A DNA stretch of 64,000 nucleotides from Escherichia phage BAU.Micro_ELP-22, in the sequence record OR699282.2, one strand, 5' to 3'. This document shows, piece by piece, positions 18,855-49,392 of the stretch (within the stretch, counting starts at the first letter, position 1; every line of letters starts with the position of its first letter). The notes beneath the pieces were generated by a model that worked only from the letters and a program-made list of their open reading frames with translations, did not search any database and had not been told where the DNA came from. Both the position numbers and the translations under genes were made by a program.

Positions 18855-18855
18855 A

Positions 18856-19254: not shown

Positions 19255-19255
19255 T

Positions 19256-19283
19256 GGGACATTATATGTTCCAATGATATAAT
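19256..19283 (+). promoter_or_regulatory. promoter, GGGACA -35-like box, 16-nt spacer, TGATATAAT extended -10
   Basis: atGGGACA-n16-TATAAT; same architecture recurs at 30352 and 49365. Confidence 0.4.
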
Positions 19284-19289
19284 GTATAT

Positions 19290-19806
19290 AGAAAATGACA
19301 ACGGACATTGAAAAATGGACACTGAGAACCTACTTCTCTTGAAAATGTAAAGGATAGATGAGCTTTACCGTTGTAGCGAACAGCAGAAGAAACCTGTTAG
19401 AGTACTGGCATTCAAACAAACACGATGTAAGACCACGAATCACGGCGACACGGCTGTATAAAGAACTCCGATAAGCATACAGAGAGTTCCTAGATAGATG
19501 TATAAGGTTCGCACCTTACCAGATTTGCTAAGGGAGTTCAAGAATAGCGGACGCAATTTTTACAAGAAAGTTGCGTCCAAAATTTGAGAACAAGTACTAC
19601 TTTGATCGAATAGAGTTAGTACTGAGTGCTGTTGATGAAAAGACCAGCGACCGTTGCATATGACTGCGATAGAGAGAAACCGAGCAACCCGCTTTCGCTC
19701 TCTAAATTTTGGTACAAGAAAGATCCGTCCAAAATTTGAGAAATTCGCAATTCGATAATATCCGATGCCATCATCGTCAAGAGAGACTTAATTGTCTCTT
19801 TTTTAT
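19290..19806 (+). ncRNA. putative structured non-coding RNA locus (about 520 nt), no ORF over 15 codons
   Basis: Bounded by the promoter above and the terminator at 19781; visibly GC-richer than flanks; 30-nt direct repeat at 19561-19590 and 19723-19752; hairpins ggacgcaa/ttgcgtcc, aaggt-tcgc-acctt, cccc-tgc-gggg. Confidence 0.35.
19781..19806 (+). terminator. intrinsic terminator (agagac-ttaatt-gtctct + TTTTTTATT)
   Basis: Perfect 6-7 bp stem followed by a T-run at the 3' end of the non-coding locus. Confidence 0.5.
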
Positions 19807-19944
19807 TACCTTCATTCCCCTGCGGGGGGATGTAATAGTCCTCAACAAATCCCGTCAAGTTTTTAAAGTACATTATCATTTTCAGAAGGAACTAGTTTAC
19901 GAAGTAAACGCAGTGACTTCTTGAGTTACGAGAGAACGAAGTGA

Positions 19945-20373
19945 ATGAGTAACACAACGAAAATATCCGATAAATCCGAATTAACACAAATGTTATTCAA
20001 AGAATATTTTGAGTTTCAGATAAAAGACGAACAACAATTACCACAGCAATATTTGAAAAGAATTAAAGATCCGTCAGTAATTACTAAAGAAACTAATTTT
20101 TATAATAGTATTTTGGATTTCGTTAAATCAGTTCATACAACAAGACCTATTGTAGTTTTGTTTTTTGATAAATCTATTCCTTTAGTAGTTCCTGAAAATG
20201 TATTTTTTATTTCAGAAACTGATTTAAATAATCAAAGTACTGTAAGTAGATTAAGAAATTGCTTACTTGTAGTATGTGATTCTTCTTTGTATAATAACAG
20301 AATACTATGGGATAGAAGTAAACGCAATGCAGTTTCTGAAATGAATCCTGAAATTACCTTTATTATTAACTAA
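19945..20373 (+). CDS. hypothetical protein (142 aa)
   Basis: ORF downstream of the non-coding locus; no motif. Confidence 0.45.
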   Translation: MSNTTKISDKSELTQMLFKEYFEFQIKDEQQLPQQYLKRIKDPSVITKETNFYNSILDFVKSVHTTRPIVVLFFDKSIPLVVPENVFFISETDLNNQSTVSRLRNCLLVVCDSSLYNNRILWDRSKRNAVSEMNPEITFIIN

Positions 20374-20405
20374 ATAATAAGAGAATAACTCTAAGGAGAG
20401 ATATT

Positions 20406-20846
20406 ATGGAAGATATTAATGATTTACGACACGTAATGGACTTTATCGGAAGTACTGAAGAAGATAATTCGTATGATGAAGTACTATTAACTTTTATTGA
20501 AAATAGTTTGTTTTTAAGTTCTGCTGCACATAACTGGCACTTACAATGTCATTTTTATACAAAGCATTTACAATTAGATGAACTATATAAAGAATTACCA
20601 GAATATGTAGACGCATTTGTTGAAGGTATCATGAATAATCGTGGTGCTTTACAAGTTGGAACTGGTAATAGTTATCGTTTTACACCAATTGAAGATTGTG
20701 TACCAATTCTTGAAGAATATGTAGAGCAATGTAGAGCAATTCATGATATGCTTGAAGAATCAGGTGATTACGGCAGTGTAAACACATTAGAAGATATTAT
20801 GAGTTTTGTTGAAGGAACACTTTACAAACTTAAAGTTTTACAATAA
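20406..20846 (+). CDS. ferritin-like / Dps-like four-helix-bundle protein (146 aa)
   Basis: AAHNWHLQCHFYTKHLQLDELYKELPEYVDAFVEGI resembles the Dps ferroxidase-centre region, with His, His, Asp and Glu at the expected spacing. Confidence 0.35.
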   Translation: MEDINDLRHVMDFIGSTEEDNSYDEVLLTFIENSLFLSSAAHNWHLQCHFYTKHLQLDELYKELPEYVDAFVEGIMNNRGALQVGTGNSYRFTPIEDCVPILEEYVEQCRAIHDMLEESGDYGSVNTLEDIMSFVEGTLYKLKVLQ

Positions 20847-20853
20847 AATATAT

Positions 20854-20884
20854 GGAGAGTCATTGTGACTCTCCTTTTCTTTTG
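20854..20884 (+). terminator. intrinsic terminator (ggagagtca-ttg-tgactctcc + T-run)
   Basis: 9-bp perfect stem and TTTTCTTTT. Confidence 0.6.
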
Positions 20885-20894
20885 GACAAATAAA

Positions 20895-21512
20895 ATGAAA
20901 TCTCATGATTTAGCAAAATTACTACTATCTCAACCAAATCTAGAAATTTATCATTATGATGCAGAGAGTGACTTGCATTATCAGAATTTTGATAATAAAT
21001 TAATGGTCACCCCATCTGGCATTTTCACAACGGTAAAACCCACATCAGTTTCTGAAAATGTACTTACACCATACGAAACCCCGCTCTTGGGTCATGTACA
21101 AATTTTCTTTAAGGATGGTACTATTACTCCAAAATTGGAGGGTTCATCTATTCAAACTGTTCTTAACTTAGAATCTGGGTTGATATTTAACATTCCTTAT
21201 GAAAAGCCAATTGTTTTATTAGGTAAAAATCAATCAGCACCATCAGGGAATCAAAATGCTGTTTGGTATACACCCGATGATATTGATTTCATTTCTGTAC
21301 TGACAGAATATGAACCTAATACTTGGCATGGAACATGGGAAACTATGTCGTATGATGAAGCAATTGAATGTGGTAAAAATTTAGTTAAAATGTTATTTCC
21401 ACAAAAAGAAGAACTTTCACAAGAACAAATTGATTCATTTTCTAAAGATTTTCCTGATTCTGAATTCAATGTAAAAGTATCACCTTCTATGATTGATAAA
21501 ATTAAAAAATAA
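20895..21512 (+). CDS. hypothetical protein, paralog of 22248
   Basis: Start moved to the Met after the terminator (ORF track 20865). Shares DLAKLLLSQPNLEIYHYD, TPSGIF and YTPDDIDF...TWHGTWETMSYDEA with the 22248 product. Confidence 0.5.
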   Translation: MKSHDLAKLLLSQPNLEIYHYDAESDLHYQNFDNKLMVTPSGIFTTVKPTSVSENVLTPYETPLLGHVQIFFKDGTITPKLEGSSIQTVLNLESGLIFNIPYEKPIVLLGKNQSAPSGNQNAVWYTPDDIDFISVLTEYEPNTWHGTWETMSYDEAIECGKNLVKMLFPQKEELSQEQIDSFSKDFPDSEFNVKVSPSMIDKIKK

Positions 21513-21518
21513 AAGAGG

Positions 21519-21878
21519 TTGAACATGAGTGATTACCGCGTAACATCTGGACTAATGGCACGTCTTATTGAAGCAGTTCCTGAAGATGATTATGAAGCTA
21601 TTTCAGATCGTCTTTTTGACGCAGATTCTAAACTCCATATTACATATGATGGTGCATTGATTTACAGTACTGATATTGATATGTCTAGTTATGAATTTGA
21701 GATTTCTTTTGGTAACAAACTAACTACTGAAGAATTCGCTCGAAAATGTGAGCGTGAAGGATTCTGTATTGATATTAGTTCAGTTCAGCCATACACATCA
21801 CTGTGGTATGATGGTGCTGATAGTCCAATGTCTACTACATCTTTACAGGATTTTCTAAATGCAAATCAAAAAGATTAA
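21519..21878 (+). CDS. hypothetical acidic protein (119 aa)
   Basis: ORF with AGAGG RBS; no motif. Confidence 0.45.
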   Translation: MNMSDYRVTSGLMARLIEAVPEDDYEAISDRLFDADSKLHITYDGALIYSTDIDMSSYEFEISFGNKLTTEEFARKCEREGFCIDISSVQPYTSLWYDGADSPMSTTSLQDFLNANQKD

Positions 21879-22251
21879 ATTCCACCAGCATTGTTCTATA
21901 CATGAATGTGATGATTGTGGTATACAAATGAGTGACATTTATACAGTTTCCTGTAAAGGTTTCAAATTCACTCACGGTGAACCTGCTTATTGTTATGGTA
22001 CAGAAGAAGGTGATATCGAAGTAGTACTGAAAGAATTGTTCCAGTACTTGCAAAGTGTAGGTCATGATGTTACAATACCCACATATTATGAAGATGATTA
22101 TGATGCACATGTAGAAGAAAATACATATTATAATCAATTCGTTTATGGTAATGGTTTTATCACATACCTACATGAGAATGGTATTGAGGTAAAAACTAAG
22201 TACACCAGTGATGATTATGATGATGATAATTCTATGGAGATTGAAGATTGA
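21859..22251 (+). CDS. hypothetical Cys-rich acidic protein (130 aa; start uncertain)
   Basis: HQHCSIHECDDCG...SCKGF suggests a small metal-binding N-terminus; alternative start at Met 21928. Confidence 0.35.
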   Translation: MQIKKIKFHQHCSIHECDDCGIQMSDIYTVSCKGFKFTHGEPAYCYGTEEGDIEVVLKELFQYLQSVGHDVTIPTYYEDDYDAHVEENTYYNQFVYGNGFITYLHENGIEVKTKYTSDDYDDDNSMEIED

Positions 22252-22832
22252 AAGCAAAAGACTTAGCAGCACTGTTGTTGCAGAATCCTGAAATGGAAGT
22301 GTATCATGAGCACATGCACATTGATGACATGTGTGACGCTTATTATTCACCAGAAAATGTGTCTGGTATTGAAATTACCCCTAGTGGAGTATTCATCAGT
22401 ACTGAACGTATTGATTATAATTCTCAGCAAGAAATCAAAACTCCACATAATAAACCTCGCATTGGTGCTATTGACCTAGTATTTCATCAGGACCGTTTGG
22501 TGGAATATGATGAAGACGATGGTACTACCCGAACTGATGTTGAGAATGTTGTTTTTCGTTTTTATAATGCATACGAAGACCCAACTACTGGAGAAGATTT
22601 CTTCCGTGAGCTATTAGAGGATGGAGAAGTTTATGGTCAGGATGGTACGGTTTTTGTACTGGACCCTAACTATGAGCCAGATCACAATACATGGCAATTC
22701 TATACACCAGAAGATGTAATGGAAGTTAAAGTACTTACTGATCTTGACGATAATTGGAATCCTATGTATACTTCAATGACATATGAAGAAGCCAAAGAAT
22801 ACTTCGTTTCTAAACTAAACATTACAAAATAA
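22248..22832 (+). CDS. hypothetical protein, paralog of 20895
   Basis: DLAALLLQNPEMEVYHEH, TPSGVF and YTPEDVMEV...NWNPMYTSMTYEEA align with the 20895 product. Confidence 0.5.
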   Translation: MKAKDLAALLLQNPEMEVYHEHMHIDDMCDAYYSPENVSGIEITPSGVFISTERIDYNSQQEIKTPHNKPRIGAIDLVFHQDRLVEYDEDDGTTRTDVENVVFRFYNAYEDPTTGEDFFRELLEDGEVYGQDGTVFVLDPNYEPDHNTWQFYTPEDVMEVKVLTDLDDNWNPMYTSMTYEEAKEYFVSKLNITK

Positions 22833-22849
22833 TAAGGATTCACAAATTT

Positions 22850-23131
22850 ATGAAAATTGTTGCAAGTGCATGGATGAAACTACCAGATGGTACAACTGCG
22901 TTTGAAGAATATGGCTTTGTTGAAAGTGTCGATGAATTAAAGCGTTTCAAGTGTGAAAATGATGATGATGTTTTTGATATTGTATTTGTATATCATCATA
23001 TTCCTAATGATACTGATTATGAACATTATTATTATCATCCTGATTTGTTGGAAACACTTGTATGCGACAACTATCATGAAATTGATGAAAATACAGCTTT
23101 ACTAATGTTGAGTACCGTATCTCCGGTATAA
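22850..23131 (+). CDS. hypothetical acidic protein (93 aa)
   Basis: ORF; no motif. Confidence 0.4.
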   Translation: MKIVASAWMKLPDGTTAFEEYGFVESVDELKRFKCENDDDVFDIVFVYHHIPNDTDYEHYYYHPDLLETLVCDNYHEIDENTALLMLSTVSPV

Positions 23132-23139
23132 GGAGTAAT

Positions 23140-23619
23140 ATGTATAATCTTATAATTATCCGCGAACCATATGAATCTGACAACAGTTCAACTGATGGTG
23201 AGGTTTTAGTATATCAAAGTTATGAACAAAGTGGCATTGAACATGAATTAAAAGATTATTTACGTCAACATATATATCTATATCGTACTGAACCACGTGA
23301 ACAGTATGGAGATATAATGTTTATCGTAACTCATAATGGTGCAGTAATTGAACATGTAAATATGACAAATAACATGTATTTTCATAATTACACTGACACG
23401 TCTAAAGAATTAGGAAACGATTTCAAGTCTGTTTTCGATGCATTGCGTATCAATTTTTTTAAAAATGACAAATTCTGTACTGATATTAGATTAGAAGAAG
23501 CAAATACAAAAAAGAAACTTTCTCGAAAATACGAGAGTGATAGAAAAAAAGAACAAGAGATTCAGCGTTTACACGAATTGATGAAAAAATACCCTAATGA
23601 GGTACAACATGGCTCTTAG
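23140..23619 (+). CDS. hypothetical protein (159 aa)
   Basis: ORF; basic C-terminal tail. Confidence 0.4.
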   Translation: MYNLIIIREPYESDNSSTDGEVLVYQSYEQSGIEHELKDYLRQHIYLYRTEPREQYGDIMFIVTHNGAVIEHVNMTNNMYFHNYTDTSKELGNDFKSVFDALRINFFKNDKFCTDIRLEEANTKKKLSRKYESDRKKEQEIQRLHELMKKYPNEVQHGS

Positions 23620-23947
23620 AGGTTCAAATCAATATAAATGTATTGCAGAGATCAGGAAGAAAGATGGAACACTTGTAGACCGAGCATTGAAGCAAGAATA
23701 TAAAGAATTACGTGATGTGGTACATAATGATAGTTATGGTGGGATGCGTCGTCAAAAAATTTATGAATATCTAAAGAAAGGTTTAGAAATTCAGGTTAAT
23801 GGTCTTCATTGCATTCAAACAAAAAACGATCCTGATATTCTACGTTTGTTGAAAGAAGATAAGATTGAAATGTTTAATGTTCCTATTTCATTCTATGGTA
23901 ATAAACTAAAATGTAAGCATACTTTCTTGAGGATTAAAAATGGTTGA
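23597..23947 (+). CDS. hypothetical basic protein (116 aa)
   Basis: ORF overlapping upstream gene; no motif. Confidence 0.4.
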   Translation: MRYNMALRGSNQYKCIAEIRKKDGTLVDRALKQEYKELRDVVHNDSYGGMRRQKIYEYLKKGLEIQVNGLHCIQTKNDPDILRLLKEDKIEMFNVPISFYGNKLKCKHTFLRIKNG

Positions 23948-24164
23948 TTCATTTATGAAAAAAATCTTTAAAAAATTACTATCTGGATTTGAAAAAGCAG
24001 TAAGTCTTATTTTCAGTTCAGTTGTAATGGTTATTACAGTACTGGCGTTTTCTCTAGTACTGCATTTTGTACCATTCTGGTTAATCTTTATTGTACTTAT
24101 TGCTCTGCTAGGTGCACATGTTTATTATGTTTACCGTGACGCATTGGATGATGATAACGATTAA
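23940..24164 (+). CDS. small membrane protein (74 aa, two predicted TM helices)
   Basis: Two hydrophobic stretches (AVSLIFSSVVMVITVLAFSLVL and FWLIFIVLIALLGAHVYYVY) and an acidic C-terminus. Confidence 0.45.
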   Translation: MVDSFMKKIFKKLLSGFEKAVSLIFSSVVMVITVLAFSLVLHFVPFWLIFIVLIALLGAHVYYVYRDALDDDND

Positions 24165-24172
24165 ATGTATTT

Positions 24173-24198
24173 GACCTCACTATGTGGGGTCTTTTTTT
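24173..24198 (+). terminator. intrinsic terminator (gacctcac-tat-gtggggtc + TTTTTTT)
   Basis: Stem with one G-U pair plus T7. Confidence 0.5.
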
Positions 24199-24210
24199 AA
24201 GGAAAATTAT

Positions 24211-24663
24211 ATGCTTATAGAAACAGAAACATTTAAGCGTTTTATTGACGTATGTCGTGATACGTGTTTTTGTTATCTTTCATCACAAGAACAGTTCGAT
24301 GCAATGAGTGATGTGTTAGGATATCGCCGTTCGGTATTGATGTATTTTGATGGTCCTTTGATTGAAGTTCATGATGATGTGTATTCCCTACAATATGTAT
24401 CAATTAACAATGCGTTCATTTTTATTGCTGACTCGTACTCAATTGTAGTTGAGGAACGTGGTAAAGGTATACCAACAACACACTATATTGATTGTCAAAG
24501 AACTGATTGTGTTTATAGTTCTGGACTAATACAAACACCAATTCCATATCCTAGCATTTATATAAACACACTCCATCAAGAAATTATTGAGTACTGTAAT
24601 AGTATTTCTGATACAGATACACAGTATTTTCCTATTGTATTATTGAAAGGAGTTAGAACATGA
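24211..24663 (+). CDS. hypothetical protein (about 150 aa)
   Basis: Start moved to the Met after the terminator with AAGGA RBS (ORF track used a GTG inside the terminator). Confidence 0.45.
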   Translation: MLIETETFKRFIDVCRDTCFCYLSSQEQFDAMSDVLGYRRSVLMYFDGPLIEVHDDVYSLQYVSINNAFIFIADSYSIVVEERGKGIPTTHYIDCQRTDCVYSSGLIQTPIPYPSIYINTLHQEIIEYCNSISDTDTQYFPIVLLKGVRT

Positions 24664-25049
24664 GATGGCGTAAACGACACGTAAAAAGATTTGATAAAAT
24701 AATCAAAAAATATTACTCACATAAGTTAGATCCAATCATACTTCAACTAAGAAGTAGTATGTTTGATAGACGTTTTCCACAGTGTTTAGAATCGTACAGT
24801 CGTAAACGTTACAAGAATGAATACCTGGTATATCGTTATGATTTATCAGAATTCTTTTTGAATACTCGTGTATCTGTACCCATCAGACTGTACTCAAGGG
24901 TAAAACGAAGTAGGGTTCAAGATATTACATATGGATATCTTATGATTGAAATCGACGACCTCAATGAAAAAACTGGCAGAAATTACAGTACTTTATGTCT
25001 GGAAAACCATGATTCAATAAAAAGAATCATAGAAGAGTTGGGAAAGTGA
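24660..25049 (+). CDS. hypothetical basic protein (129 aa)
   Basis: ORF with 4-nt overlap; Arg/Lys-rich. Confidence 0.4.
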   Translation: MRWRKRHVKRFDKIIKKYYSHKLDPIILQLRSSMFDRRFPQCLESYSRKRYKNEYLVYRYDLSEFFLNTRVSVPIRLYSRVKRSRVQDITYGYLMIEIDDLNEKTGRNYSTLCLENHDSIKRIIEELGK

Positions 25050-25066
25050 GATTTTTAGTGCTATAA

Positions 25067-25423
25067 TTGGAGATGAGTATGAAATACATCGATAAAGGTA
25101 CAGTGGAGACACAGTACTGGAATATCCATATTGCTGGTGATATTCAAACAGCAAGAGAATACACAAGAAAATTTGCGTTTAAGCATGGCTTTTGTGTACA
25201 ATTAATTCCCTGTGAATATATCTACACTGGTGGTCTTGAAAGTGGGATGTGTGCTCGTATTATTCAGTACCCACGCTTTCCAAAAGAAGAAGTATATCTC
25301 AACCGAGATGTATTAAACTATGCAAAGGGTTTAGCTGAAGAGTTGTGTCAAAAGAGCTTTACTATAGAGCGAAATAATGATACAATTTATTATGAAAGTG
25401 ATGAACCTTTACACAAGAAATAA
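25067..25423 (+). CDS. hypothetical protein (118 aa)
   Basis: ORF with GGAG RBS. Confidence 0.4.
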   Translation: MEMSMKYIDKGTVETQYWNIHIAGDIQTAREYTRKFAFKHGFCVQLIPCEYIYTGGLESGMCARIIQYPRFPKEEVYLNRDVLNYAKGLAEELCQKSFTIERNNDTIYYESDEPLHKK

Positions 25424-25434
25424 AAGGAAAATAT

Positions 25435-25566
25435 ATGAATGGACTAAAGAAATTTGGTAAAGATTTTCTAAAATGTATACGCTATACATATGATGCAAAC
25501 CCAGAAATGACTGCTATTGTGGGTGTGTTTATTACACTTGTTGTATTAAGTTTTATTGTGGTGTAA
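25435..25566 (+). CDS. small membrane protein (43 aa)
   Basis: Own translation MNGLKKFGKDFLKCIRYTYDANPEMTAIVGVFITLVVLSFIVV with AAGGAAA RBS; below ORF-track cutoff. Confidence 0.3.
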   Translation: MNGLKKFGKDFLKCIRYTYDANPEMTAIVGVFITLVVLSFIVV

Positions 25567-25570
25567 AAGT

Positions 25571-25774
25571 ATGATTGAAATCAATGCTGATATCTATTGT
25601 AGTGCAGCACCAAATTACTTCATTTATGCTTTGAGTACATTTGGTGAAACTGACGGTGAAACTTTTGTTTTAGTAGATAATACGACATGGTACAAAACAA
25701 GTAATAAAATTCCTAAAGACGTTTTGGAAACATATGTTCGTATTGAAAATAAAAACATATATGTAAATTTATAG
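25571..25774 (+). CDS. hypothetical protein (about 67 aa)
   Basis: Start moved to Met 25571 (ORF track 25556 overlaps the small ORF). Confidence 0.35.
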   Translation: MIEINADIYCSAAPNYFIYALSTFGETDGETFVLVDNTTWYKTSNKIPKDVLETYVRIENKNIYVNL

Positions 25775-25781
25775 GTAAAAT

Positions 25782-26192
25782 ATGATTGAAATGGAAGGAA
25801 CTCTGGTGTATGATCCAGACCGTGGCACTATGAAAAAGAAGAAGGACTTCTGGTTAGTACTACAACTTCCATTACAGTTGGTTCGATACTACCAGTACTT
25901 CATCAGAACTGACTTACATATTGATATTAAAGACCCACAATGGGGAGCACATGTCAGTATCGTTCGTGGTGAAGTGCCACCAAATCCAGAGTACTGGAAA
26001 AAGTACGATGGAATGAAAGTAAAGATAAAGTTCAATCCTTGTATTGAGATAGTAAAAGATAAAAAGAATCCAGGTTCATTCTTTATCATTGAATTTGAAG
26101 ATGATTTCATCACACATATTAGAAATGAACTAGGACTACCAACCAAGTACTTTAAATATCACATCACTGTAGGTAGAACCTACTACGATTAA
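25782..26192 (+). CDS. 2H-phosphoesterase family protein (LigT / cyclic phosphodiesterase / Acb1-like), 136 aa
   Basis: Two H-h-[ST]-h motifs (AHVSIV near residue 57 and YHITVG near residue 127) about 70 residues apart, the hallmark of the 2H fold. Confidence 0.5.
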   Translation: MIEMEGTLVYDPDRGTMKKKKDFWLVLQLPLQLVRYYQYFIRTDLHIDIKDPQWGAHVSIVRGEVPPNPEYWKKYDGMKVKIKFNPCIEIVKDKKNPGSFFIIEFEDDFITHIRNELGLPTKYFKYHITVGRTYYD

Positions 26193-26360
26193 TGTGGTTT
26201 TTATGGTAAATATATCTTGTAATAAAATAAAAATATGCTATACTACTTAAACATTTGAAAAGAACGTTTTTGTACTGTAGAAAGTCCGATGAGGCTTTTG
26301 CAAATGGCCTCTTTGCCATCTTTGTGATTGCCCATCTTAACAATCAACAAAGGAGGCGTT

Positions 26361-27287: not shown

Positions 27288-27303
27288 AAAAGGAAGGTGA
27301 AGT

Positions 27304-37680: not shown

Positions 37681-37686
37681 AACACT

Positions 37687-37714
37687 AAGGGAACCTTTTG
37701 GTTCCCTTTTTTAT
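37687..37714 (+). terminator. intrinsic terminator (aagggaacc-tttt-ggttccctt + TTTTTT)
   Basis: 9-bp perfect stem and T-run after the sheath gene. Confidence 0.7.
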
Positions 37715-37759
37715 TGATTAAAATTAAATACCTTTATATTGATGTTATAAAGGAACATT

Positions 37760-37885
37760 ATGGATATGGAAGAAATACTAAAAAAAACAATACAAGATGT
37801 CAGTAAAATAGTTTTAACTCAGTTGGAATCAGTACACATACTAAATATATTTTTAAAAAATTTGGAAGATTGTCGGTATAATTGA
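37760..37885 (+). CDS. small ORF (41 aa) in the sheath-tube intergenic region
   Basis: Own translation MDMEEILKKTIQDVSKIVLTQLESVHILNIFLKNLEDCRYN with AAAGGA RBS; speculative. Confidence 0.2.
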   Translation: MDMEEILKKTIQDVSKIVLTQLESVHILNIFLKNLEDCRYN

Positions 37886-38075
37886 AAAATACGAAGTATA
37901 CACAAATGGAAAATGGTCTATATCAGTAAACTATATTGACCACACTAAACGAAAAAGATACTTATATTGTGTTAATATTAATTGGTTCCCTGTTGATGAC
38001 ACTTTAGTTAATTAAAAATATACTTCCAGATAGATAAATAATATAAAGATGTCATTCCATAATAGGAGAATATAA

Positions 38076-38762: not shown

Positions 38763-38783
38763 TTTTATTTAAACTTAATATAT

Positions 38784-38812
38784 AGCCTCGAATCTATTCG
38801 GGGCTTTTTTTA
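38784..38812 (+). terminator. intrinsic terminator (agcctcgaa-tcta-ttcggggct + TTTTTTT)
   Basis: 9-bp stem with one mismatch plus T7. Confidence 0.5.
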
Positions 38813-38857
38813 TGCTAAATAAAGTATAATGCCTTATAAAATAAAAAAGAGGTTGCT

Positions 38858-39634: not shown

Positions 39635-39645
39635 GGAGATAATGA

Positions 39646-41753
<2,108 letters not shown>

Positions 41754-41780
41754 CTTAAACGACCTTATGGAGTTATTAAA

Positions 41781-42317
41781 ATGAATAGATTACAACAAAT
41801 CCTAACTGAAAAGAAACCAGTTTATGAATACCGAGTTAAGTTTGCAGTTGAACCAACACCTGAACAACTTAGTAAAGTAACACAGCGACTAATGGATCGC
41901 TATGATGCGTTTGAAATTGGAGCACTAAAGAAAACAATTTTTATGGAAAAACCATTAGATTTCTATGAATTAGATTGTGGTGAAATTTGGATGTTTGACT
42001 TTAAATGTCATCGTGGCGTTCAATCAAATGTACTAATGTATGAAATTGGCAATTTACTAAGCATGACAGAAGCATTGATTCGTGTTCGTAGTAAAGATGA
42101 ACCTCGTCAAATTGAAATGACTGATTTGGAAGATGATATCGATTTTGATGATGTTGATGAACCAGTTATTGGAGTGGATTTTGGCAAACCAGAAGACAGT
42201 TATGACTTAGCTGGACAACAACGTGCAGACACTGCCGTTGATGATGCAATTGAAGCATCGAAAAAAGACAATAAATACTCTCAATATATGAGTGCTGGTT
42301 TTGGTAAAAAGGATTAA
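41781..42317 (+). CDS. hypothetical acidic protein (178 aa)
   Basis: ORF with GGAG RBS; acidic C-terminal half. Confidence 0.45.
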   Translation: MNRLQQILTEKKPVYEYRVKFAVEPTPEQLSKVTQRLMDRYDAFEIGALKKTIFMEKPLDFYELDCGEIWMFDFKCHRGVQSNVLMYEIGNLLSMTEALIRVRSKDEPRQIEMTDLEDDIDFDDVDEPVIGVDFGKPEDSYDLAGQQRADTAVDDAIEASKKDNKYSQYMSAGFGKKD

Positions 42318-42320
42318 CAC

Positions 42321-42863
42321 ATGAGTATACTTAATGAAATGTTAGATTATGAAGACAATGAGTTAAATGAAGCTCGTCCTTATAGTCGTTCACAAAGTGC
42401 AGTTGATAGTGCAAAAGGAAAAGTAAAAGGCTTTTTTGGTAGTGGACAGATTGAACAAGGTGCACAAGAAGTTGGTGCTGAAGCCAACCGCTTATGGGCA
42501 GAGTTTAAACGTTATGTTGGACGTAAATATGGTAAAGCTCAACCATCAGTACCTTACGCTGATGTGGCACAGTTTTTTAAAGGTAACAATCTTGATATTA
42601 AACATTTAGGGAACAATCCTCGTCGTTCTTTTACACCAAAAGATGTAGGTACTGCTCTATTAAATGCTGCTCGTGATATAATGAATGACTACCGTGACCA
42701 ACAAGGTGGCGAAGAAAGTTCAGAATCACAACCATCACAATCGACCTCAACTGAGCAACCAGCACAACAAGAACAACCAAAAGCACAAGGTTCCAGTATC
42801 CCTGATGCTCTACAAAAATTAAGTCCAGAGCAACGCGACCAACTGTTACGTATGCTTTCTTAA
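42321..42863 (+). CDS. hypothetical protein with low-complexity Gln/Ser/Glu-rich C-terminus
   Basis: ORF; no motif. Confidence 0.45.
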   Translation: MSILNEMLDYEDNELNEARPYSRSQSAVDSAKGKVKGFFGSGQIEQGAQEVGAEANRLWAEFKRYVGRKYGKAQPSVPYADVAQFFKGNNLDIKHLGNNPRRSFTPKDVGTALLNAARDIMNDYRDQQGGEESSESQPSQSTSTEQPAQQEQPKAQGSSIPDALQKLSPEQRDQLLRMLS

Positions 42864-42876
42864 GGAGAATCAACAC

Positions 42877-44394
42877 ATGGATAATTTTTTCAGTACTGAA
42901 ACTACCACAGTTCCTAATGGATATGTATATACGTCACATACTGGTGCAAAATATGTATTTCTTGAAGGATTCTGGTTCAATGACAATAATATGTTAATGG
43001 TAGACCCTAGAAAATACCCATCCATGTACGCAAGTGCTCGACAACAGATTGTCGAGCACAATCTAGCTTCAAATGAATATAAGATTGGTAACAAATATAT
43101 TGTTGAAGGTAAAGAGTGTACATTTATTGGTGAAAACCGTTTCAATTCAAAAGATGGAATTCTATTAACTGAAAGTGAATTCATCACTGAATTAATGGCA
43201 GATGATCATCGAGTATATAATGTTTCTAAAGAAACACTACAAAAAGAATGGAATGCATTAAAATTTTACATTCTTCCACCATATGCTGATGATATATCAA
43301 TTCCAGCAGGTATGGAAGTAAGTGGTTTTAAATTTGTTCCAAAGAATCACCGTTTTGTTGATATGAAATCAGGCCGAGCAGTTGATCCAGCAATGACCCG
43401 TAAACTATCAGATGAAGGTATGCGTATTGCTCGTCAGTTAGCTTCTAAAAATAAACTAATTCCAATCAAATCAACCTTAGTACAAGGCAATACACGTTGT
43501 GAGTGGAATGGTAAAGAATTTTGTGATAATGATGGTAATGTAGTAATTCCAGAACAAAATGCACATGCAATTATTAATGCATATCAGCAATTTGTTAAGA
43601 ATAACCCAAGTGATTTTCCAACATTAACTGGTGAACAAGAACATAGTGAGCAACGTTTTGGTTCAGGTGAAAAGCCACAACAAGCTTCACAACCTGCTAA
43701 ACAGCCAGTATTTGCAACTAAAGAATCAATTAATGAAGCAGATGAAGAAATTGAAGAATTTGAAAGCATTACTGTTCCTGACGGTTATAGAATGACTTCT
43801 TCTAAAGGAAAAACATACGCTAAGAAAAATAACTTGTGGTATGATATCGAAAGTAAAAAGCAACTTAACACAAGTGCTTCTAAAAGTGTTGAACGAGCAG
43901 CACAGCGTGATATTTTCCGTCATAACAATTCCGGTGCTATGAAAATCGGTACAAAAGTTAAATCCAAACAAGGCAAAGAATATTCGTATGTTGGTGGTGA
44001 CAGATTCATTAGTGCTGATGGTAAGTTTATACCAAAAGCAACTGCTGCTAAATTACTTGCCAAATATGAACAAGATAAAGAAGTTAAAAGTGATGAAACA
44101 CCTGAAGTAGACTCTGGTACTGAGCAAATTCAATCAAAAGAAGAACCTAAGAAAGAACCAGAATCTGAACAAAAACCAGACGAAGTTTCTGAACCAGAAA
44201 CTAAATCTGAAACAATTGCTGGTGATGATGTACAATCATTAGCTTCTAAAATTAAAGAGTCACCTTATGCTAAAAAAATCACAGTACTACTAACTCGTGG
44301 TGATGAGGTTTCTCTACTTGCTGCTGACATTTTACTTTCAGGTAAAAAGGATGAAACAGTGCAAATTTTAAAATCATTAAATAATAATGATTGA
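42877..44394 (+). CDS. repeat-containing protein (505 aa)
   Basis: Internal duplication (TVPNGYVYTSHTGAKYVF vs ITVPDGYRMTSSKGKTYAK; NRFNSKDGILLTESEF vs DRFISADGKFIPKATA); Lys/Glu-rich linker. Confidence 0.5.
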   Translation: MDNFFSTETTTVPNGYVYTSHTGAKYVFLEGFWFNDNNMLMVDPRKYPSMYASARQQIVEHNLASNEYKIGNKYIVEGKECTFIGENRFNSKDGILLTESEFITELMADDHRVYNVSKETLQKEWNALKFYILPPYADDISIPAGMEVSGFKFVPKNHRFVDMKSGRAVDPAMTRKLSDEGMRIARQLASKNKLIPIKSTLVQGNTRCEWNGKEFCDNDGNVVIPEQNAHAIINAYQQFVKNNPSDFPTLTGEQEHSEQRFGSGEKPQQASQPAKQPVFATKESINEADEEIEEFESITVPDGYRMTSSKGKTYAKKNNLWYDIESKKQLNTSASKSVERAAQRDIFRHNNSGAMKIGTKVKSKQGKEYSYVGGDRFISADGKFIPKATAAKLLAKYEQDKEVKSDETPEVDSGTEQIQSKEEPKKEPESEQKPDEVSEPETKSETIAGDDVQSLASKIKESPYAKKITVLLTRGDEVSLLAADILLSGKKDETVQILKSLNNND

Positions 44395-44416
44395 TAACTA
44401 AAAGGATTTATTTAAA

Positions 44417-45397
44417 ATGGCTAAAAAAATTAATGAAGCACAAGTTAAAATCGATATCGCAGGTTTAGAATCTGATGATTTGGAAACTCTATCACGTATG
44501 TTAGCTCTTGCTGGTCAAGCTGAACGTCAAGACCCAGTAGTTGCTGCTCCAGTACCATCTATGGGGTCTATGACTCCATCTCTTCCACCTATTGCTCCAC
44601 TAGATCTCGATTCTATTGGTGCTGAAGAAGAAATTGGTGGAATTGAAACTTCAGTTGAAGACCCACTAGCAGCGGCAGTTGATGATCTTTCCGCTGATGT
44701 TGGTGATTTTGGTGCTGACACAGATGAAGTTAGTATGGATGCTGAATTTTCAGAACCAGGTGTAGAAGGTGAAGAAGATTTTTCTCTTGACCTTAGTGGT
44801 CAACCTCAACTAGAATCAGTTGAAGAAGACGATGAGGAAGAAGAGGAAATTATTGAAGAAGAATTCGATTTTAGTCGTATGCTATCCCTTGCTGGTATTA
44901 ACGAAGAAGAAGACGAAGATTTTTCCGTAGAGGGTAATCCTGCTACCGATAAAGAAATGAAAGATACCCAATTTCTACCAGATCTAAGTATCTCTGAAGA
45001 TGAAGAACCATCTAACAGTACTGATTATGGTCCATATGAAACAGAAGCTGATGCCGTTCGTGATGGTCAACTAAAGACTAATGGTGTTGAAGGTGACCAT
45101 TTTGTTGTAATTGCAAAAGGCAATCAATTTTATTGGAGACGTGTTGTAGATGAAGATCTTGACAATCGTCCAGAACCTGAGTATTATGATAATGAAGGGA
45201 ACGAAAATCGTGTTCATAAATTTGAACCAAAATTCCCAGGCACTGCATTAGGAGATAACCCACTAAATGTTAATGAAAGTGAAGAAGATGATTCACCTGA
45301 AGGTAACATTGACTTGGAAGATGATTCTGATGAAGAAGTAGAAGATATTTTTGAAAGTCTCCAAGAAAAATACAAGAAATTTTTAGGAGACAAATAA
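44417..45397 (+). CDS. highly acidic protein (326 aa) with internal repeat
   Basis: Asp/Glu runs (EEDDEEEEEIIEEEFDF) and a repeated LSRMLALAGQAERQD / FSRMLSLAGINEEED motif. Confidence 0.5.
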   Translation: MAKKINEAQVKIDIAGLESDDLETLSRMLALAGQAERQDPVVAAPVPSMGSMTPSLPPIAPLDLDSIGAEEEIGGIETSVEDPLAAAVDDLSADVGDFGADTDEVSMDAEFSEPGVEGEEDFSLDLSGQPQLESVEEDDEEEEEIIEEEFDFSRMLSLAGINEEEDEDFSVEGNPATDKEMKDTQFLPDLSISEDEEPSNSTDYGPYETEADAVRDGQLKTNGVEGDHFVVIAKGNQFYWRRVVDEDLDNRPEPEYYDNEGNENRVHKFEPKFPGTALGDNPLNVNESEEDDSPEGNIDLEDDSDEEVEDIFESLQEKYKKFLGDK

Positions 45398-45398
45398 T

Positions 45399-45794
45399 AT
45401 GCAATATAATTATCGTGAACTAGTTGAAGCGTTAGACGAAATTACCGGAAGAGATGAAGACGAAAGTTTTTCAGTTGAAGTTGAATCCGATGTTGTAGCA
45501 GTTGATGTTCTTAAGGATATTACCAAATGTCTTATTGATATTGTTGATAAGATTAAATCTGGTGAAGACCAAAAAGAAATTGTAGATAAACTACAAAAAG
45601 CCTGTGACATTTTGTCTGACATTCGATATAATGATGAAAGTACTGAAGTTGCTGATGAAGAAGTGTTGGAAGCCATTGCAGGTTGTTTTGGAACTGAAGG
45701 TATGGGACCAACAATTGACAAAGAAGGCGTACAACACTATAATGAGCCTGGTGCACCATCTTATGCTGCACGTCAAGGTTTTGTTGGAGACTAA
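45399..45794 (+). CDS. hypothetical acidic protein (131 aa)
   Basis: ORF coupled to upstream stop. Confidence 0.45.
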   Translation: MQYNYRELVEALDEITGRDEDESFSVEVESDVVAVDVLKDITKCLIDIVDKIKSGEDQKEIVDKLQKACDILSDIRYNDESTEVADEEVLEAIAGCFGTEGMGPTIDKEGVQHYNEPGAPSYAARQGFVGD

Positions 45795-45797
45795 TAT

Positions 45798-46178
45798 ATG
45801 TTTCCAGAACCATCACATAACAGTACTGAATATCAAAATAATGTACTTTCCAAAGTTAGGGAAGTACATGAATCAGATTCAGAAATAACAGACCGTATGC
45901 TTCTGATGTCAATTTTTGAAAATTTCAGAACTGGCGGTGGTTTACGTCTTAGCAAGTTTGGGTATGGAATTTGTAAAGAAAATAATCTTTATGAATTTAC
46001 AAAAATCCCCTTGCAAAGAGAATTTAAAAGTTCTATAATGTTTACATCACTTGACAGAATATGTACTTCACCTTATTATGTTGAAGGTCAGTACATATAT
46101 CTGACAGATGCAATGATAATAACTGAATTAACATTGTGTTGTGATGATTTTAAACAGTTATTTTCTATTCATATGTAA
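45798..46178 (+). CDS. hypothetical protein (126 aa)
   Basis: ORF; no motif. Confidence 0.4.
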   Translation: MFPEPSHNSTEYQNNVLSKVREVHESDSEITDRMLLMSIFENFRTGGGLRLSKFGYGICKENNLYEFTKIPLQREFKSSIMFTSLDRICTSPYYVEGQYIYLTDAMIITELTLCCDDFKQLFSIHM

Positions 46179-46201
46179 GAAAAATGAATTAAAAATAAAT
46201 G

Positions 46202-46229
46202 TTGACAAGATAGAATGATGTGATACAAT
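46202..46229 (+). promoter_or_regulatory. consensus sigma70-type promoter P1 (TTGACA-16-TGaTACAAT)
   Basis: Exact -35, 16-nt spacer, TACAAT with upstream TG. Confidence 0.55.
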
Positions 46230-46295
46230 AAGCATCAGACATAAAGTTTTCAAGCGACACAAGATGTGAGTTTGAAAAAAAAAGAAAAAAAGTGA

Positions 46296-46323
46296 TTGAC
46301 AAGTTGAAACGATGTGATATAAT
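46296..46323 (+). promoter_or_regulatory. consensus sigma70-type promoter P2 (TTGACA-16-TGaTATAAT)
   Basis: Near-duplicate of P1 (TTGACAAG...GATGTGATATAAT) 94 nt downstream. Confidence 0.55.
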
Positions 46324-46492
46324 GTTCACATCAAGACAGCAAAGAGATTTACCTTTTAAACACACGGATGATTCATGAAGTAACAAAGGAACTGATAAGT
46401 TAAATTATTTTAACACAGTTCCTTTACTTTTGCCCACGGATTGGCTATAATAGAAACTTAAACGATTTTATCCAACAAAAGGAAATATATAC

Positions 46493-47818
46493 ATGACTAC
46501 TCAAAACGATATCCTGAACGTTAAACTGACTCCAAAGAAAGCTAAAGAAGCAATGGCACTAGCTGACATGATTCAAGATAGCCTGATGATTTGGGGTAGC
46601 CCAGGTATCGGTAAGTCTGCAATCGCTCGTCAATACGCTGATGAAAATTACCCACTGCGTAAAGATAACGTAGCTAAAATCGAGTTCATGAAACAACAAA
46701 TCGAAGCTGACCCTGAAAATGCTGATCAGCTACGTCGTGAACTGGCTGCATTTGAAGCAAAACTAATCGACCAAGATACTAACTTTATCGATTTCCGTTT
46801 GTCTCAAATCGAACCAAGTGACCTTCGCGGTATTCCAGTACCAGAGAAGCTTTTCCGTAAAACTGACGGTTCTCTTCTGAAAGAATCTGAGCTTGCCGAA
46901 GCAAAAGATTATGTAGCTGAAACTGCGGTAGTATGGGCTGCACCTAAAGTTCTGAAATTGTCCGAAGATTGGAAAGGTGTTATTCTGTTTGACGAAATTA
47001 ACTCTGCAATGCCTATTGTTCAGGCAGCGTCTTATCAGCTAATCCTCGACCGTTGTGTTGGTGAGATGAAGCTACCTAAGACTGCACTGATTCTTGCAGC
47101 AGGTAACCGTGAAACTGATGGCGGTGTAACTTTCTCTCTTGCTACACCACTGCGTGACCGTATGACTCACATTGAGATGATTCCTTATCATCAAGATTGG
47201 ATTAACGATTATGCGATTGCAAAACGTTTGAACCCAGCAACTGTTGCGTTCATCAACAACACTGGTTCTAAGTACTTTAACACACTTAGTCCACAAGATC
47301 CTTCTCACAGTGGTGGTACTTCTCCACGTTCATGGGAAGCAGTAGCACGCTACGAAGATCTCAAGAAAACTAAGACAATTGATAAAGAAGTGTTCCGTGC
47401 AATGATTGCTGGTCGTGTTGGTGAAGGTGTTGCAACTGAATACATTGAGTACGTTGAGAACGTTGCTAAACTACCAGATACTATGTCTATTCTGTCTGGT
47501 GAAATCAAAGAAATCGACGCAACGCTGGATATTTCTGCGAACTACTTTATCACTCTGAACTTGGTTTATAAAATTATCGACCTGTTCAATGAGAAGCAAG
47601 AACAACGTCTACCAGTGGAAGAATGGGGTAAACTGTGTAACAACTTCATCACCTTCCTAGACCATAACTTCTCTGCAACTCAAGCAGAACTGGCAGTACT
47701 GGCAATTCGTACCATCACGCTTCATAAGGTTGCGATTTCCATTAAAGATGTACCAGCGTTTAAAGATTTCATCGCTAAGTACTCTGATCTTGTACGTAAA
47801 GCACGCTCTCTTGGCTAA
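46493..47818 (+). CDS. AAA+ ATPase, MoxR/CobS-like (441 aa)
   Basis: Walker A MIWGSPGIGKSAIARQY and Walker B VILFDEINSA; codon choice (ctg, cgt, ggt, atc, ttc, aaa) differs visibly from neighbours. Confidence 0.7.
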   Translation: MTTQNDILNVKLTPKKAKEAMALADMIQDSLMIWGSPGIGKSAIARQYADENYPLRKDNVAKIEFMKQQIEADPENADQLRRELAAFEAKLIDQDTNFIDFRLSQIEPSDLRGIPVPEKLFRKTDGSLLKESELAEAKDYVAETAVVWAAPKVLKLSEDWKGVILFDEINSAMPIVQAASYQLILDRCVGEMKLPKTALILAAGNRETDGGVTFSLATPLRDRMTHIEMIPYHQDWINDYAIAKRLNPATVAFINNTGSKYFNTLSPQDPSHSGGTSPRSWEAVARYEDLKKTKTIDKEVFRAMIAGRVGEGVATEYIEYVENVAKLPDTMSILSGEIKEIDATLDISANYFITLNLVYKIIDLFNEKQEQRLPVEEWGKLCNNFITFLDHNFSATQAELAVLAIRTITLHKVAISIKDVPAFKDFIAKYSDLVRKARSLG

Positions 47819-47839
47819 TTAACAAAGAGTTGTTGACAA

Positions 47840-47868
47840 GAAGGATGCCTAATGGTATCCTTCTTTTA
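47840..47868 (+). terminator. intrinsic terminator (gaaggatgcc-taat-ggtatccttc + T-run)
   Basis: 10-bp stem with one G-U pair plus TTTTATC. Confidence 0.5.
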
Positions 47869-47892
47869 TCTTAACTAAACGAGGAAATATAC

Positions 47893-49317
47893 ATGTCAGA
47901 TAACAAATCTACTTCAAGATTCAATGAAGTATCTCCGGCACTCCAGAAAGAATGTCAAGAACGTCTGGTTCTGGCTCGTACATCTTTGATGTTAACTGCA
48001 CCATTCTTTGGTGTACTCGCTTCACGTTTACGTCCAGTTCCTAATAATACATGGTGTCGTACTCTAGCAGTGGATGGTAAACATCTATTCTACAACGTAG
48101 AATTTGTAATGGGCATTCAAGACCCATCTAAAAAGAAAGAATATGAAGAAGCTATTCGTGAAAAGCACCCTGAAGTTACAGACGAACAATTAAAAGAAAT
48201 GACTGAAGGTTTGACTGATGAAAACCTTGTTGCTGTAATTTGTCATGAAATTCTACACTGTGCTTACGATCACTTCCTTCGTCGTGGTATGCGTGATCCG
48301 CAACGTTATAACCGTGCAGCGGATTATGCCATTAACCAAATCATCGTTCGTGAGAAAATTGGAAAAATCCAAAGTTCATGGTTGTATGATAAAAAATATG
48401 AAGGTATGACCGCAGAAGAGATTTACATTCTTCTTGAAGAAGAAGAACAAAAAGAAGATGGTGAAGGTGAAGGTCAACCACAAAGTGGTGGTGGCGAAGG
48501 TGAAGGTAAAAATCGCGGTACTTTTGGCGATATTAAAGATGGTAAGGGTAAACCAAAAGGTACTACCATTGACCAGCATGACGTTCCACAAGAAGGTCAA
48601 GAGGGTGGTTCAAGTGAACAGCAAAAACGTGATTACATGGATGATTTCAAAACAGCAATGATGAATGCTGCTCGTGCAGGTGGTACACCAGCAGAAATCG
48701 CTCGTATGATTAACAACTTTAAAGAACCAAAGATTGACTGGCGTTCAAAACTTCAACGTACACTTCGTAGTTGGTTGAAGTCTGATGCAACATATCAAAA
48801 TCCGAATCGTCGTTCTTGGGGTGCAGGTTTTGGTTCTAATGGTTCATTCTATGGTAATCCAATTTACCCAGGGATGAAACCAGATGATGATATTGATATT
48901 GCGATTGCACTAGATGCTTCTGGGTCTATTTCTGAAGATATGCTTCGTGATTTCATTAGTGAAGTTCTTGGCATCACTAAACAATTCAAACAGTTTAAGA
49001 TTCGTATCATGACTTTTGATACTGAAGTTTATACTGTAAAGGATTACAAAACTGGCGAAGAACGTAAGATTCTGGAATATCCAGTAAAAGGTGGTGGTGG
49101 TACTGACTTTGAAGCAGTATGGGTTCATATGAAGAACGACAACTACAAGCCTAAACAGCTTGTAATGTTTACTGATGGTGAACCGTGGCAGTCATGGGGT
49201 GATCCAAACTACTGTAAAACACTGTTCGTGATTCACAGTAACCCAAATAAAGTTGCACCATTTGGTGAGACTGTACACTACGAATATGAAGCTGATAAAA
49301 AGCGTCAACGTAGTTAA
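47893..49317 (+). CDS. vWA-domain protein with N-terminal HExxH putative metallopeptidase-like domain (DUF2201-type partner of MoxR ATPases)
   Basis: ICHEILHCAYDH (HExxH) in the N-terminal half, Gly/Glu-rich linker, then vWA MIDAS-like DIAIALDASGSIS and ...MFTDGEP. Confidence 0.6.
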   Translation: MSDNKSTSRFNEVSPALQKECQERLVLARTSLMLTAPFFGVLASRLRPVPNNTWCRTLAVDGKHLFYNVEFVMGIQDPSKKKEYEEAIREKHPEVTDEQLKEMTEGLTDENLVAVICHEILHCAYDHFLRRGMRDPQRYNRAADYAINQIIVREKIGKIQSSWLYDKKYEGMTAEEIYILLEEEEQKEDGEGEGQPQSGGGEGEGKNRGTFGDIKDGKGKPKGTTIDQHDVPQEGQEGGSSEQQKRDYMDDFKTAMMNAARAGGTPAEIARMINNFKEPKIDWRSKLQRTLRSWLKSDATYQNPNRRSWGAGFGSNGSFYGNPIYPGMKPDDDIDIAIALDASGSISEDMLRDFISEVLGITKQFKQFKIRIMTFDTEVYTVKDYKTGEERKILEYPVKGGGGTDFEAVWVHMKNDNYKPKQLVMFTDGEPWQSWGDPNYCKTLFVIHSNPNKVAPFGETVHYEYEADKKRQRS

Positions 49318-49330
49318 GTACTAAATAATG

Positions 49331-49358
49331 AGAACGGAATTTTCCGTTCTCTTCTTTT
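49331..49358 (+). terminator. intrinsic terminator (agaacgg-aatttt-ccgttct + T-rich)
   Basis: 7-bp perfect stem plus CTTCTTTTAT. Confidence 0.55.
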
Positions 49359-49364
49359 ATAAGT

Positions 49365-49392
49365 GGGACAACTTATAAAAATATGATATAAT
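49365..49392 (+). promoter_or_regulatory. promoter, gtGGGACA-n16-TGATATAAT class
   Basis: Same architecture as the sites at 19256 and 30352. Confidence 0.4.

Follow-up and report, generated by a model that had tools for sequence, protein, structure and literature searches.

The 64,000-nucleotide stretch of Escherichia phage BAU.Micro_ELP-22 considered here (sequence record OR699282.2; hereafter, the window) comes from an Asteriusvirus jumbo coliphage of the PBECO4/121Q type, a group with genomes of ~350 kb; it is 99.8% identical to Escherichia phage JP4 and 98-99.6% identical to PBECO4, UB, SP27, Sharanji and further Asteriusvirus phages. To our knowledge, the transcription programmes of such Rak2-like jumbo phages are essentially uncharacterised. 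A preliminary description of the window had drawn attention to an unusual promoter-like element, GGGACA-N16-TATAAT, at three sites, and this candidate promoter class and its likely reader are the subject of the present analysis. All three sites lie on the + strand where they had been placed (19256-19283, 30352-30379 and 49365-49392), and each reads (A/G)TGGGACA-N13-TGATATAAT, in agreement with the GT or AT prefix and the extended -10 ascribed to them. A fourth member, at 25039-25067, was absent from that first list. The principal features, with their predicted start sites, are as follows:

19255-19283, + strand: promoter 1, middle-type (predicted); TGGGACA at 19255-19261, 13-nt spacer at 19262-19274, TGATATAAT at 19275-19283; predicted start ~19290, heading ~520 nt of non-coding DNA from 19284 to ~19806
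25039-25067, + strand: variant member, TGGGAAA-N13-TGCTATAAT; the -10 abuts a TTG-started open reading frame (ORF) at 25067
30351-30379, + strand: promoter 2, middle-type (predicted), TGGGACA-N13-TGATATAAT; predicted start ~30386
49330-49351, + strand: terminator-like hairpin, 9 pairs plus a T-run, between the upstream HNH-endonuclease gene and promoter 3
49364-49392, + strand: promoter 3, middle-type (predicted), TGGGACA-N13-TGATATAAT; predicted start ~49399

Promoter 2 heads a Nudix, thioredoxin-like and macro-domain block (annotated phosphatase/Appr-1-p processing) with its first start at 30452/30455, and promoter 3 heads a small ORF at 49412/49426 that is followed by a DprA-like gene and then by thymidylate synthase. 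For the gene behind the variant member, whose JP4 equivalent lies at 261480, the JP4 annotation puts the start ~11 nt farther downstream. The local setting had been described as uniform, with every site just after a terminator and 30-40 nt before a start codon, and this part of the description fits site 3 only: the hairpin at 49330-49351 precedes it and a start follows after roughly the expected distance (~20-35 nt), but upstream of sites 1 and 2 there is no terminator, the sites directly adjoining the stop codon of the preceding ORF, the next start after site 2 is ~73-76 nt away, and site 1 is followed by no ORF start.

Within the window, the expected number of GGGACA-N16-TATAAT matches is 0.08, against the three seen, and none of 100 dinucleotide-preserving shuffles of the window gave three. 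The GGGACA hexamer by itself is not enriched (10 found versus 16 expected) and is followed by a -10 in only 3 of its 10 occurrences; because the hexamer alone is not over-represented, the signal is its combination with the extended -10. A degenerate pattern that captures all four members, TGRRAMR-N13-TGNTATAAT, likewise has 4 sites in the window against 0.02 expected.

Whole-genome counts were made on JP4 (370,741 bp), in which the window corresponds to 236,443-300,4xx on the + strand. The full-genome motif search that had been suggested in the preliminary description returned 12 exact GGGACA-N15-17-TATAAT sites, 12 of 12 on the + strand. A strict pattern, TG[AG][AG]A[CT][AG]-N13-TGnTATAAT, finds 16 sites, every one on the gene strand, compared to a mean of 0.1 over 30 Markov-1 simulations; together, the shuffles and simulations exclude a chance origin of the boxes. 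Nor is the motif equally frequent inside genes, since 14 of the 16 strict sites fall between genes although coding sequence makes up 90% of the genome. When every TGnTATAAT in JP4 was listed with its upstream sequence, GGGACA proved to be the commonest form of a wider box that also occurs as TGAGACA, TGGAACA and TGGGAAA, in each case with 13 nt between box and TG. The original definition of the box thus stands for its most frequent form, but the class is broader, comprising TGrGACA plus the minor variants TGGAACA and TGGGAAA.

Relaxing the filter to six of the seven box positions yields ~26 intergenic members in JP4, of which one or two (for example, window 30415-30443) are probably spurious. 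Across these 26, the box counts are T1 23, G2 23, G or A at position 3, G4 22, A5 26, C6 19 and A7 24; the box is preceded by A-rich sequence and followed by the 13-nt spacer and g-T-G-(A/C)-TATAAT, in which the TG is invariant. The consensus is a-rich - TG(G/A)GACA - N13 - gTG(A/C)TATAAT. The genes behind the JP4 members include DNA primase, two exonucleases, topoisomerase II, a DNA methyltransferase, tRNA-Ser/Arg, the Nudix block, the DprA/thymidylate-synthase block, an RNase H-like exonuclease and the gene before DNA polymerase; the SSB gene has two tandem members upstream, and a box lies 58 nt upstream of a gene for a gp55-like 'sigma factor for late transcription'.

These sites are physically segregated from the canonical promoters of the phage. 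JP4 contains 36 intergenic TTGACA-N16-18-TATAAT promoters, 23 of which fall within a stretch of small ORFs at 120-162 kb; of the 36, only 5 carry a TG extension, and A-rich sequence also lies upstream of this TTGACA class. Conversely, no TGrGACA member is found at 100-200 kb of JP4, the class being spread across the replication and metabolism regions. Several further observations concern the canonical promoters themselves. Those at 120-162 kb bear a block, AGTACTG, directly 5' of TATAAT (TTGACA-N9-AGTACTG-TATAAT, with a spacer of 16 nt), and AGTACT recurs, uncounted, in promoter-flanking sequences inspected elsewhere in JP4. The JP4 record contains two tandem copies of some 20 kb of early promoters and small ORFs (~123-143 kb and 143-163 kb), probably a terminal repeat that was assembled internally. 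The window holds two tandem canonical TTGACA promoters, at 46202-46229 and 46296-46323, with TG-extended -10 boxes TGATACAAT and TGATATAAT, respectively; a leader of ~170 nt separates this pair from an ATPase gene at 46493, and the same pair is present in Ecwhy_1.

Ecwhy_1, an Asteriusvirus that is ~90% identical in this region, was compared at the four window sites. The box and extended -10 are identical at 61 of 64 positions, versus 29 of 52 in the spacers (Fisher p = 3e-7). At promoter 1 the box and -10 are retained and the spacer is identical at 7 of 13 positions; at promoter 2 the box (7/7) and -10 (9/9) are unchanged and the spacer is identical at only 5 of 13. Promoter 3 reads CGGGACA...TGATATAAT in Ecwhy_1, and the 25039-25067 member reads TGGGCAA...TGCTATAAT. 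Such a pattern, in which two elements are under constraint and keep their distance while the sequence between them is free to change, is what one expects of a promoter. The window sites also have the layout of the sigma-70 family, GGGACA-N16-TATAAT with TG at -15/-14.

The non-coding stretch behind promoter 1 (19284 to ~19810) contains no ORF and is closed by a hairpin and T-run at ~19778-19806. It carries a direct repeat, CGTCCAAAATTTGAGAA, at ~19573 and ~19727, and the first ~150 nt, which were compared with Ecwhy_1, are nearly identical there. Rfam and tRNA scans of the stretch gave zero matches; the locus is a candidate phage non-coding RNA.

A comparable motif has been predicted in related phages. 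In Pectobacterium phage CBB, three promoter motifs were reported (Buttimer et al. 2017, PMC5259590): RpoD-like TTGACA promoters, mostly in what is presumed to be the early region; a 'divergent RpoD-like' motif ('Promoter 1'), in which TGAAACG replaces the -35 and which lies upstream of mainly DNA-synthesis genes and of a gp55-like sigma gene; and a late motif, ATAAATA. The divergent motif is present in Cronobacter phage GAP32 as well (Abbasifar et al. 2014, cited in PMC5259590). The 29-nt sequences listed in Table S6 of PMC5259590 have the form TG(A/G)AA(C/T)(G/A)-N13-TGnTATAAT. Our literature search found no promoter description for Asteriusvirus phages of the PBECO4/121Q type; the RaK2 genome paper contains no promoter analysis, and the Sharanji and fEgEco12 papers make no mention of promoters.

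Comparison of SSB-anchored syntenic 40-kb regions from JP4, SE_PL, Hallingskeid, EJP2, RaK2, GAP32 and XbC2 shows that the same intergenic gaps carry the motif, with its layout of 7+13+9, in every enterobacterial genus sampled. SSB, for instance, is preceded by two copies, at ~90 and 170-190 nt, and primase and exonuclease by one each. The sequence of the box, by contrast, is genus-specific:

JP4: TGGGACA / TGAGACA
SE_PL: TGGGACA / TGGGATG
Hallingskeid: TGGGAC(A/G) / TG(A/G)GATA
EJP2: TGAGACA
RaK2: CTGAACA
GAP32, XbC2: TGAAACG / TGGAATG

The Asteriusvirus sites share with the CBB/GAP32 class the 29-nt architecture (7-nt box, 13-nt spacer, TGnTATAAT), which the four window sites and the 16 strict JP4 sites all display. 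They share also an intergenic, co-oriented placement before DNA-synthesis genes, a copy before the gp55-like sigma gene (Porf_244 in CBB; the box noted above in JP4) and orthologous syntenic positions, the class being an in silico prediction in both groups. What differs is the box, TG(G/A)GACA here versus TGAAACG, TGGAACG and TGGAATG there, with G rather than A at the position corresponding to -33. Because 22 of the 26 JP4 sites have G instead of A at box position 4, the Asteriusvirus class does not conform to TGAAACG and is a variant of the CBB/GAP32 class, not an identical member; from these alignments, the Asteriusvirus box is best described as a sequence variant of a class already predicted for CBB and GAP32. 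Pseudomonas phage PA5oct shares the SSB synteny, yet has no such box in that region, only a canonical TTGACA promoter, and the PA5oct paper reports TTGAC/TATAATA promoters only. In a more distant relative, Vibrio phage 2.275.O, the syntenic gaps within 3600-21800 contain an invariant TGTTATAAT after A-rich sequence with no obvious common -35 box; these gaps may represent a further variant of the class.

The preliminary description had suggested a class separate from both the TTGACA consensus promoters and the late TATAAATA box, and all of the computational tests run bear this out: the sites are strand-consistent and nearly all intergenic, they lie apart from the TTGACA class, their boxes are kept while the spacers diverge, and they are syntenic in relatives; for CBB and GAP32, moreover, the class had been predicted independently. 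One account of such sites would be that host sigma-70 uses them as ordinary extended -10 promoters with a partial -35 (GACA), from the beginning of infection and without any phage factor. The three original sites do score 10/12 with TG in a generic sigma-70 scan, and extended -10 promoters can function without a good -35. On this account, however, positions -36 to -33 should drift, yet T, G, r and G are kept in 22-26 of the ~26 sites, and the same positions are retained between JP4 and Ecwhy_1 while the spacers mutate. The Mimasvirus box TGAAACG matches TTGACA at just two of six positions, yet is equally conserved; the class is excluded from the early region; and the box differs among genera whose hosts share sigma-70 specificity and whose early promoters are canonical TTGACA. 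A second box that changes by genus beside early promoters that remain TTGACA argues against plain use of host sigma-70, which we consider quite improbable as the full explanation, and implies that the reader of the box must be phage-encoded.

A candidate for this reader is the RpoD-like sigma factor JP4_CDS0143 (121Q gp167; JP4 75264-76229; 321 amino acids), which matches Pfam Sigma70_r2, r3 and r4 and NCBIfam RpoD_Cterm, and whose nearest solved relatives are primary sigma factors. A canonical TTGACA promoter 1.6 kb upstream of its gene would allow expression before the TGrGACA class is needed; the CBB orthologue is located in the presumed early region (PMC5259590). Iyer et al. (PMC7824862) noted sigma factors, minimal or RpoD-like, in every 'group 2' jumbo phage and suggested that these recruit the host core polymerase. 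Orthologues of the JP4 protein are present in all genera that have the motif, with 31-59% identity outside the PBECO4 group. The tblastn hit list for the sigma contains no Pseudomonas phages, whereas 11 matched SSB, and from these organism counts PA5oct appears to be without an RpoD-like sigma. Between Ecwhy_1 and JP4, the sigma protein is only 59% identical, compared to ~90% for the sampled DNA segments and ~86% for the SSB protein, with the recognition helix nonetheless conserved; the sigma gene of Asteriusvirus, judged by these identities, is fast-evolving or exchanged.

Another protein in the window was considered as a possible reader. The product of the + strand ORF at 27304-27636 (110 amino acids) matches Ribosomal_S30AE, the ribosome hibernation/'sigma 54 modulation' family (E = 3e-10), whereas the Ecwhy_1 orthologue bears the annotation 'putative sigma 54'. 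Being a hibernation-type S30AE/HPF protein and no transcription factor, it was rejected as the box reader.

According to Hook-Barnard and Hinton (PMC2613000), E585 and R588 of sigma-70 govern base specificity at -33, and R584 that at -31. Aligning GrGACA with TTGACA at the 16-bp spacing makes box position 4 equivalent to -33. The recognition helices of the phage sigmas were aligned to an E. coli sigma-70 fragment, the landmark residues of which were checked by position, with the following result for residues T583-Q589 and their equivalents:

E. coli sigma-70: TRERIRQ
JP4: SRSSIHR
Ecwhy_1: ARSSLHR
SE_PL: SRTSLHR
Hallingskeid: SHSTIHR
EJP2: NRCTIHR
RaK2: VRGTLHY
GAP32, CBB, Kaldavass: SKATLSR

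The motif RSS[IVL]HR[KR]Y is kept in Asteriusvirus-type sigmas that are just 48-60% identical overall, with one S/A exception at its third position. An AlphaFold model built from 12 database homologues has a poor predicted local distance difference test (pLDDT) score overall (62) and higher scores in the C-terminal domain (83-87) and the recognition helix (~85); in the model, a short helix (274-280) and a beta-hairpin insertion come before R293-A313, which form a single long helix. This insertion in region 4, 8-10 amino acids long and a predicted beta-hairpin (FV-DDNGK-YV) in the turn of the helix-turn-helix, occurs in all nine aligned orthologues, which come from different genera.

The base at -33 covaries with these helices. 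Where histidine occupies the 588 equivalent (JP4, SE_PL, Hallingskeid and EJP2), G is present at -33 in 27 of 28 syntenic sites, and the four window-region sites of Ecwhy_1 have G as well. Where the 585 and 588 equivalents are alanine and serine, A is found at -33 in each of the seven sites of GAP32 and in those CBB sites that PMC5259590 lists. XbC2 sites have A in 8 of 8; the XbC2 sigma was left out of the helix comparison. G-type boxes were predicted for Hallingskeid and EJP2 on the basis of their H-R helix before the promoter regions had been retrieved, and such boxes were found in both. The sigmas of SE_PL, Hallingskeid and EJP2 are 41-46% identical to that of GAP32 and 36-39% identical to that of JP4; since they are overall nearer to GAP32, the box tracks the helix rather than overall relatedness. 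Scanning IMG/VR for more sigma lineages gave 12 loci in all, mostly from genomes already sampled, among which six more GAP32-type loci pair SKATLSRRY with TGAAAC. There is also a weak tendency for histidine at the 584 equivalent (Hallingskeid) to accompany T at -31. The published work on CBB and GAP32 did not link the box to the recognition helix of a phage sigma.

We propose that the boxes constitute a phage-specific middle-type (delayed-early) promoter class of Asteriusvirus that is read by the phage RpoD-like sigma, a reading that we hold with moderate confidence from the sequence comparisons above. GrGACA, 16 bp upstream of TATAAT, would sit where region 4.2 of a sigma-70-family factor binds. 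Host sigma-70 polymerase would first transcribe the early region from TTGACA promoters, the phage sigma gene included; the phage sigma would then direct the host core polymerase to TGrGACA promoters and so to genes of replication, recombination and nucleotide metabolism, tRNAs, the non-coding locus and the gp55-like late sigma gene; and the gp55-like sigma would, in turn, serve the late TATAAATA promoters. Transcription would thus initiate at the sites described here, in the middle phase of infection, with the phage sigma rather than another phage protein as the reader. A broader proposal, on which we are evenly divided, is that in the Rak2-like phages (Asteriusvirus, Alcyoneusvirus, Mimasvirus and relatives) the RpoD-like sigma and the -35 element co-evolve as pairs, with the host-type extended -10 kept and, in each genus, a private middle regulon on the host core polymerase; as part of the same proposal, only region 4.2 and the -35 would have been re-specified, such that GrGACA, TGAACA and GAAACG track the equivalents of sigma-70 residues 584, 585, 588 and 589.

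Several observations weigh against recognition by the phage sigma. TGnTATAAT is a perfect E. coli sigma-70 extended -10, GGGACA matches TTGACA at four of six positions, and with the generic score of 10/12 plus TG given above, an unmodified host polymerase could well use the sites. In phage sigmas of all genera, W433, W434 and E458 of sigma-70 are missing and residue 455 is H or Y, while residue 437 is M in JP4 and RaK2 and Q in GAP32 and SE_PL, with the -10 the same everywhere; because these -10 residues are missing or variable, reading of the -10 by the phage sigma is not obviously sigma-70-like. The insertion in the turn of the helix-turn-helix makes the residue equivalence with sigma-70 a model. 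The covarying events that are independent are few, essentially the Mimasvirus and RaK2 lineages, such that shared ancestry could explain the pattern, and another phage DNA-binding protein could covary with the box equally well.

The -10 also speaks for a second account, in which host sigma-70 reads the extended -10 and some other phage DNA-binding protein, an activator or appropriation factor akin to MotA/AsiA, reads TGrGACA, with the phage sigma serving elsewhere. TGnTATAAT is invariant across genera as the exact sigma-70 extended -10 consensus, the phage sigmas have no TG-reading E458 and several have no H455, T4 middle promoters follow the same logic of a sigma-70 -10 with a phage-specific upstream box, and a helix-turn-helix regulator is encoded two genes upstream of the sigma gene in GAP32 and CBB. 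The register of the box is, however, that of a -35, 16 bp from TATAAT, and not that of the MotA box at -30; its genus-variable positions covary with the sigma 585/588 equivalents; and three promoter classes are matched by three sigmas, with no extra factor needed. We regard this account as unlikely. The T4-type system itself was rejected: tblastn of T4 MotA and AsiA against JP4, with queries validated by a 100% match to T4-type records, gave no MotA hit and a best AsiA hit of E = 0.86 (remote homologues may escape tblastn), and the sequence and spacing of the box differ from those of T4.

An operator, at which a phage repressor or timing regulator overlapping the -35 of host-type promoters would exert negative control, could equally take the form of a short conserved sequence held at constant spacing from the -10, and binding by a non-sigma protein is compatible with the data. 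The box, however, is one asymmetric 7-mer that contains neither a dyad nor a repeat, in exact -35 register and a fixed 13 nt from the TG, and its covariation with sigma region 4.2 would be unexpected for an unrelated repressor; we consider control of this kind very improbable.

If the boxes are indeed read by the phage sigma, these phages would run a cascade of host sigma-70, phage RpoD-like sigma and gp55-like sigma, unlike the appropriation by MotA/AsiA in T4, and the conserved RpoD-like sigma gene would gain a function. The consensus would provide a promoter model with which to annotate ~25 transcription units per genome, including the candidate non-coding RNA locus of the window, and the pairing of helix residue 588 with base -33 would amount to a testable specificity code of use for orthogonal gene expression. 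Were the pairs truly co-evolving, E. coli and its relatives would have in them a natural orthogonal set of sigmas and promoters. Conceptually, these consequences hold no surprise for phage biology, and motifs of this type had been noticed before in two related genera.

Elsewhere in the window, a Dps-like 'starvation-inducible regulator' at 20406-20846 matches DUF5856, with a weak ferritin-like domain match under the Pfam cut-off.

Among known systems, E. coli extended -10 promoters have the same TG at -15/-14 and TATAAT (PMC2613000) but no conserved non-TTGACA -35 box, in place of which the Asteriusvirus sites have a specific 7-mer at fixed spacing. The middle promoters of T4 likewise have a host-type -10, in many cases with the TG extension, and a phage-specific upstream element in place of the -35; they drive the same kinds of genes (replication, recombination, nucleotide metabolism and tRNAs) and form the intermediate tier of an early-middle-late cascade that ends in a gp55-type late sigma. 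The MotA box, (a/t)(a/t)(a/t)TGCTT(t/c)A, is however centered at -30 and lies 11-13 bp from the -10, as opposed to TGrGACA in -35 register at 16 bp, and T4 has no complete RpoD-like sigma, whereas JP4 encodes one. In Bacillus phage SPO1 (gp28) and coliphage phiEco32 (gp36), phage sigma-70-family factors redirect the host core polymerase to middle genes; there, an early-made sigma replaces the host sigma and a phage-specific element occupies the -35 region, the link between the two having been shown experimentally. The -10 in these two phages departs from the host consensus as well, whereas in Asteriusvirus it is that of a sigma-70 extended -10 promoter, and the link between sigma and box is one that we infer.

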